This document shows, one piece after another, positions 1 through 476 of a DNA stretch of 476 nt. The notes beneath the pieces are model-generated. The model saw nothing but the letters and a program-made list of their open reading frames with translations. It did not search any database and was not told the DNA's origin. The stretch's first letter is position 1, and every line of letters begins with the position of its first letter. This DNA is from Escherichia coli (GTDB lineage Bacteria; Pseudomonadota; Gammaproteobacteria; Enterobacterales; Enterobacteriaceae): NCBI RefSeq assembly GCF_003334385.1, contig NZ_QOWN01000176.1; one strand, written 5' to 3'. The position numbers were made by a program, and so were the translations under genes.

Positions 1-107
1 TCAACCGGCCCTTCGCTGATGGCATCGATCACACTCAGCAACTGCGTGGACTTCAGGTTGTCCTTCGCTTCGCGCGGGGTATGCCCCTTACTGCTTCCTT
101 TACCCAT
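1..107 (-). CDS. J: Tip attachment / host specificity protein J (central tail fibre), N-terminal 35 codons only; gene continues beyond position 1
   Basis: Hand translation of the minus strand from ATG (complement of 105..107) gives MGKGSSKGHTPREAKDNLKSTQLLSVIDAISEGPV with no stop before the window edge. This matches the N-terminus of lambda gpJ as I recall it. It lies directly downstream of gene I with a 60-nt spacer, as in lambda, and is preceded by GGAG with an 8-nt spacer. It is absent from the ORF track because it is truncated by the window. Confidence 0.85.
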   Translation of the reverse strand, partial: MGKGSSKGHTPREAKDNLKSTQLLSVIDAISEGPV

Positions 108-119
108 TCCTCACGCTCC
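108..119 (-). promoter_or_regulatory. Ribosome-binding site (Shine-Dalgarno) for J
   Basis: Minus-strand sequence immediately upstream of the J ATG reads TGGAGCGTGAGGA-ATG. GGAG (complement of 116..119) sits 8 nt before the ATG, which is good spacing; a second purine-rich GAGGA abuts the start codon. Confidence 0.6.
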
Positions 120-120
120 A

Positions 121-149
121 TAAATGACAAAACCGCCCGCAGGCGGTTT
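121..149 (-). other. Intergenic stem-loop followed by a U-rich tract on the sense strand (candidate weak intrinsic terminator or mRNA structural element between I and J)
   Basis: Perfect inverted repeat: 130..137 aaaccgcc and 142..149 ggcggttt, with a 4-nt loop at 138..141. On the minus (sense) strand this reads AAACCGCC-TGCG-GGCGGTTT followed by TGTCATTTA, i.e. a 5-bp GC core extended by A-U pairs, then an interrupted U-tract (complement of 121..129). Confidence 0.4.
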
Positions 150-167
150 CACATAAAACATTTTGCA

Positions 168-476
168 TCAGCGACCAATCACCACAACCTGACCACCGTC
201 CCCTTCGTCTGCCGTGCTGATCTCCTGAGAAACCACGCGTGACCCCACGCGCATTTCCCCGTACAGAACAGGCAGAACATTGCCCTGGGCAACCATGTTA
301 TCCAGTGAGGAGAAATAGGTGTTCTGCTTACCGTTATCCGTTGTCTGTGTACGGGGAGTTCTGGCTTTCGGTGCCAGCATCTGCGCCACACCACCGAGCA
401 CCATACTGGCACCGAGAGAAAACAGGATGCCGGTCATACCACCGGCCCCAATGGCTGCCCCCCATGCTGCAAGGGT
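168..476 (-). CDS. I: Tail assembly protein I (lambda gpI-like), C-terminal 102 codons plus stop; 5' end lies beyond position 476
   Basis: The 89-aa ORF in the track (MTGILFSLGASMVLGGVAQMLAPKARTPRTQTTDNGKQNTYFSSLDNMVAQGNVLPVLYGEMRVGSRVVSQEISTADEGDGGQVVVIGR) matches the C-terminus of lambda gpI as I recall it. The same frame stays open upstream of the ATG at 435..437 to the window edge, encoding ...TLAAWGAAIGAGG before MTGIL, so that ATG is an internal Met and not the true start. Stop codon TGA is the complement of 168..170. Confidence 0.92.
   Translation of the reverse strand, partial: TLAAWGAAIGAGGMTGILFSLGASMVLGGVAQMLAPKARTPRTQTTDNGKQNTYFSSLDNMVAQGNVLPVLYGEMRVGSRVVSQEISTADEGDGGQVVVIGR

Follow-up and report, generated by a model that had tools for sequence, protein, structure and literature searches.

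The window analysed here, a 476-nt stretch of Escherichia coli DNA, carries on its minus strand the junction between two lambda-like tail genes: the last 102 codons of gene I are followed by a 60-nt spacer and then by the first 35 codons of gene J. The features to which we refer are these:

1..107, minus strand: 5' part of gene J (central tail fibre / host-specificity), ATG at 107-105, codons 1-35 plus 2 bases, assigned by homology to lambda gpJ
3..5, minus strand: gpJ codon 35, GTT (Val) where lambda has ATT (Ile), differing base 5, from the ungapped comparison with lambda
108..167, minus strand: I-J intergenic spacer, 60 nt, identical to lambda
116..119, minus strand: GGAG Shine-Dalgarno, 8 nt upstream of the J start codon, read from the sequence
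127..149, minus strand: terminator-like GC-rich hairpin followed by a T-run, AAACCGCC-TGCG-GGCGGTTTTGT, from the RNA fold, identical in lambda
168..476, minus strand: 3' part of gene I (tail-tip; gpI residues 122-223 in lambda numbering), stop at 170-168, from the open reading frame listing
315..365, minus strand: 'plug' segment, gpI 159-175, range from PMC11101478 and coordinates computed from the frame
348..350, minus strand: gpI codon 164, ACA (Thr) where lambda has ATA (Ile), differing base 349, from the ungapped comparison with lambda
384..431, minus strand: hydrophobic gpI stretch 137-GILFSLGASMVLGGVA-152, a predicted membrane-inserting helix, from the translation, quoted in PMC10721106 and identical to lambda

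The gene I part is the same as residues 122-223 of PDB 8iyk chain I at 101 of 102 residues (E = 2.7e-60), and, as judged from homology that extends across the C-terminal hydrophobic helices, the plug and the beta-strand region, it is a member of the gpI family. The J part is the same as lambda gpJ (PDB 8iyk chain J, 9e7m) at 34 of 35 residues, which places it as the N terminus of that protein. The synteny is also that of lambda, with the I stop, the 60-nt spacer and the J ATG in succession on the same strand. A megablast search of phage records returned 110 matching records, nearly all from Escherichia lambdoid phages, and the matching records all annotate the two genes as tail assembly protein I and J (host specificity). 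The gene order, the J start codon and the spacer, its hairpin and ribosome-binding site included, are all the same in lambda (NC_001416) as in the window, and the I-J junction has the same architecture, at about 90-98% identity, in lambdoid phages such as 434, Kati, 2G7a, ev243, Perceval and cdtI. Annotation of the gene I start, which lies outside the window, is inconsistent among records: lambda has a product of 223 aa (from an ATG that overlaps K), whereas IAI1 (annotated by PGAP) and PhiR30_1 have one of 190 aa from a GTG (VKTGAEA...), with annotated spans in the locus extracts of 3638-4309 (L001) versus 19737-20309 (L002) and 4737-5309 (L003).

Phage 434 (record OL657226) has a ribosome_binding_site annotated at the position equivalent to the J Shine-Dalgarno of the spacer, and a 'terminator' at the bases equivalent to the hairpin. 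Positions 100-175 of the minus strand (76 nt) fold at -25.2 kcal/mol (z = -3.08), and the spacer hairpin, a putative terminator, has the form of an intrinsic one, a GC-rich stem-loop directly followed by a U-run. A simple consensus terminator scan did not list the spacer hairpin, probably due to G-U pairs that extend the stem into the T-run. The stem was kept in 16 of 17 compared lambdoid sequences (the exception being ev207), with loops of TGCG, TCCG or TCAG; as variation is confined to the loop of an otherwise conserved stem, the comparison holds no covariation evidence for or against function. A sigma-70 promoter scan of the window found no promoter. Two terminator-like hits that fell within the gpI coding sequence, at 446-429 and 287-273 on the minus strand, look like chance matches and were set aside. 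We likewise discounted the sole match from an Rfam scan run on both strands at a permissive threshold, an SpF10 sRNA at 269-327 on the plus strand, which scored 20.5 bits versus a gathering score of 60 (E = 0.23) and is most likely due to chance.

Comparison of the reverse complement of the window with lambda NC_001416 15136-15611 was ungapped and gave 474 of 476 identical bases (99.6%). Both mismatches change an amino acid, and the ungapped comparison found no silent or intergenic difference in the window. The first, lambda 15607 A>G, falls on the first base of J codon 35 and yields gpJ Ile35Val, so that the window encodes ...AISEGPV where lambda encodes ...AISEGPI. The second, lambda 15263 T>C, falls on the second base of I codon 164 (223-aa numbering) and yields Ile164Thr, which turns lambda KARTPRIQTT into KARTPRTQTT. 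The sequences of the solved lambda and Ur-lambda structures (8iyk, 9e7m) have Ile at both gpI 164 and gpJ 35. An earlier note on this DNA, written from the sequence alone, had given lambda gpJ as AISEGPIEG and had been unsure whether the gpI tail has T or I in lambda; its version of gpJ was right, the doubt over gpI concealed a real difference, and the alignment to lambda by which the note proposed to settle the question came out below 100% identity, with both suspected substitutions genuine. That note had placed its observation at positions 1-107, a span that covers the J site but leaves out the gpI substitution at 349. A record under another name also appeared at this level of identity: positions 15056-15531 of MW057783.1, 'Campylobacter phage CJLB-4' (48,361 bp, host Campylobacter jejuni), match at 99.6%, the same as lambda and at lambda-like coordinates, and it looks as though contamination or mislabelling led to lambda DNA being deposited as a Campylobacter phage.

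The near-identity to lambda, with an identical spacer, is what would be expected if the source were laboratory lambda, a lambda-derived vector or a DE3 prophage, in which case the two differences would be new mutations or sequencing errors. Several findings argue against this origin. The window is not identical to reference lambda (NC_001416 / J02459), all lambda-derived records stand at 99.6%, and the lambda, lambda-hybrid, DE3 and Ur-lambda-derived sequences examined all have Ile at both sites. By contrast, the whole 476-mer was found at 100% identity in phage PhiR30_1 (PV340558.1), the one such phage among the 110 matching records, and in many unrelated wild E. coli. The window was matched in 4,297 of 5,426 complete E. 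coli genomes, at 8,707 places; the best 30 matches listed were all 100% identical and all chromosomal, so at least 30 chromosomes carry the exact sequence. Hosts of exact matches include IAI1, O145:H28 RM13514, O121 and O104:H21, with isolates from dog, cattle and human, and nearly all of the exact matches lie in chromosomal prophages. It is improbable that two independent errors would both fall on the majority natural alleles, and the sequence that flanks the window in IAI1 and PhiR30_1 diverges from lambda, the adjoining 300 bases of J holding another 6 differences. Sequencing errors and laboratory mutations were rejected, since many independent genomes carry exactly this haplotype, and we consider a laboratory source highly improbable. 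From these sequence comparisons, the window almost certainly derives from a natural lambda-like phage or prophage of E. coli that carries alleles of a standing polymorphism, and not from reference lambda. The view that this DNA is a lambdoid variant and not lambda itself thus holds, given the 2 mismatches to lambda and the perfect matches in PhiR30_1 and E. coli chromosomes, and the window haplotype is ordinary natural variation that was already in public records at 100% identity.

The exact-match loci also show how little the window says about the phage around it. In IAI1, the prophage with the exact match has a full lambda-like set of head, tail and lysis genes that ends near ybhB-bioA, on the bio side of the classical lambda attachment region. 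This prophage (NC_011741 824457-864932) has a complete lambda-like late region beside ybhB-bioABFCD, and its tail-fibre genes are separated from ybhB by an AraC-family regulator gene and IS/transposase fragments. Its J protein is 1,159 aa long versus 1,132 aa for lambda J, and the first 200 residues match 9e7m and chain J of 8iyk with E of about 1e-126. Across the exact-match loci, the first ~800 residues of the J proteins share ~93-100% identity with lambda, whereas the C-terminal receptor-binding region, in IAI1 and PhiR30_1, is strongly divergent both from lambda and from each other. PhiR30_1 and the prophages of IAI1, O145:H28 RM13514, O121 and O104:H21 are thus without any difference inside the window but differ from one another outside it, for example in the J C terminus. 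Because the exact-match loci diverge in this way, the window identifies no single phage and no host range; it is a module that members of the lambdoid tail-gene pool share and recombine. The possibility that the two substitutions bear on host range was rejected, as the receptor-binding domain lies at the far C terminus of J and varies independently of the window. The statement in the earlier note that host range is set by the J C terminus, outside this stretch, agrees both with PMC11101478 and with the divergent C termini seen here.

The frequencies of the alleles at the two sites bear on which of the sequences should be viewed as the changed one. To count the alleles in the 5,426 complete E. 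coli genomes, we used a short query placed around each site, such that one mismatch brings identity below 99%. With the counts resting on exact short-mers at the best place in each record, so that copies with nearby variants are unclassified, gpJ 35 was Val in 2,860 records versus Ile in 908 (46-mer), and gpI 164 was Thr in 1,369 records versus Ile in 137 (61-mer). Among the first 60 listed of the 137 Ile164 records, ~50 are lambda-positive lineages of K-12 (J53, EMG2, WG1, NCM3722, CV601 and O16:H48 among those listed) or derivatives of BL21(DE3), and a few of these 60 appear to be natural isolates. In a divergent set of 14 lambdoid phages at about 90-98% identity, in which the codons were read directly, gpI 164 was Thr in 10, Ala in 4 and Ile in 0; at gpJ 35, 5 had Val and 9 had Ile, and the combinations did not track overall similarity. 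Among the phages that share the junction architecture with the window (434, Kati, 2G7a, ev243, Perceval and cdtI), most also have Thr164 in gpI and several have Val35 in gpJ. Lambda is therefore the outlier at gpI 164, where Thr is typical of the family, while gpJ 35 is a balanced, reshuffled Ile/Val polymorphism of which both alleles are frequent. The earlier note had treated lambda as the reference state and the window as changed; this polarity has to be reversed, since Thr164 and Val35 are common in nature and the Ile164 of lambda is rare.

Phage 434 and other lambdoids differ from the window by extra substitutions and by variants of the hairpin loop, and some of them have an alternative gpI block, RTPTATSTD. 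This block belongs to a second haplotype of the plug segment, aligned to window positions 362-336, in which RTPRTQTTD is replaced by RTPTATSTD or RTPTAASTD (ev207, PhiR11_1_star, cdtI and HannyBb). The Ala164 found in 4 of the 14 divergent phages sits within the alternative block RTPTATSTD. The many clustered base changes suggest that a short stretch within gene I was exchanged in a mosaic fashion.

The two residues lie in parts of the tail tip that have been described in lambda. From about residue 134 on, lambda gpI forms a trimer within the tail-tip lumen, in contact with the C terminus of the tape-measure protein, and a hydrophobic stretch, residues 137-152, has been proposed to insert into the outer membrane (PMC10721106, PMC11101478, PMC12617516). 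Residues 159-175 are described as a plug that closes the lambda tail-tip lumen and is released after LamB binding (PMC11101478), and residue 164 falls within this segment. From its near-identity to the lambda protein seen by cryo-EM (PMC10721106, PMC11101478), we infer that the gpI of the window would likewise form a trimeric lumen plug. In PDB 9e7m (Ur-lambda tail tip), the gpI of chains Ia and Ic differs at residue 138 (GGMTGILFSL vs GGMTGVLFSL), a discrepancy that is probably a modelling or deposition issue and not biology. Residue 35 of gpJ sits in the N-terminal hub part of J. An exchange of Ile for Val is conservative. Distant solved homologues have Ile or Phe at the position aligned to gpJ 35, a hydrophobic site into which Val therefore fits. 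The earlier description of both changes as conservative holds for Ile to Val, but Ile to Thr goes from hydrophobic to polar and is not strictly conservative.

A functional role for the substitutions would have gpI 164 tune the stability or release of the plug and gpJ 35 the packing of the hub, such that the triggering of ejection or the stability of the virion differs from lambda. The location of gpI 164 within segment 159-175, which blocks the lumen until LamB binding, is in keeping with such a role, as is the fact that the lambda lineage is nearly alone in having Ile164. However, gpI 164 is unconserved in homologues (Thr, Ala, Gly, Phe); the aligned position in distant solved homologues (F2 pyocin 25vf, 9l9p) is Gly or Phe. 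The replacement of the whole segment by the RTPTATSTD block in some lambdoids also argues for tolerance, and position 164 looks tolerant because of these two observations together. At gpJ 35, the exchange is conservative and both alleles are common. We thus regard a functional role as unlikely. Ile164Thr does change the polarity within the plug segment and could conceivably have a quantitative effect on plug stability; overall, we infer that both substitutions are neutral or nearly so.

From these results, gpI Ile164Thr and gpJ Ile35Val are almost certainly standing polymorphisms of the lambdoid tail-gene pool that are reassorted by recombination, a reading that none of the observations contradicts. 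The gpI encoded here would act as in lambda, plugging the tail-tip lumen as a trimer and inserting into the membrane, and the N terminus of gpJ would form part of the hub as it does in lambda; neither substitution would imply a change in host range or mechanism. The result is of little consequence in itself, as the window is a common natural haplotype of the lambdoid tail genes present in many public genomes. For structural and biophysical work on the tail-tip plug, it is a mildly useful point that textbook lambda carries an unusual Ile164 and most of its natural relatives Thr. We think it improbable that the Ile164 of lambda is a derived, lineage-specific state with a measurable effect, relative to Thr164, on plug stability or on how DNA ejection is triggered; if it were, mechanistic conclusions drawn from lambda structures would not be fully representative of the family.
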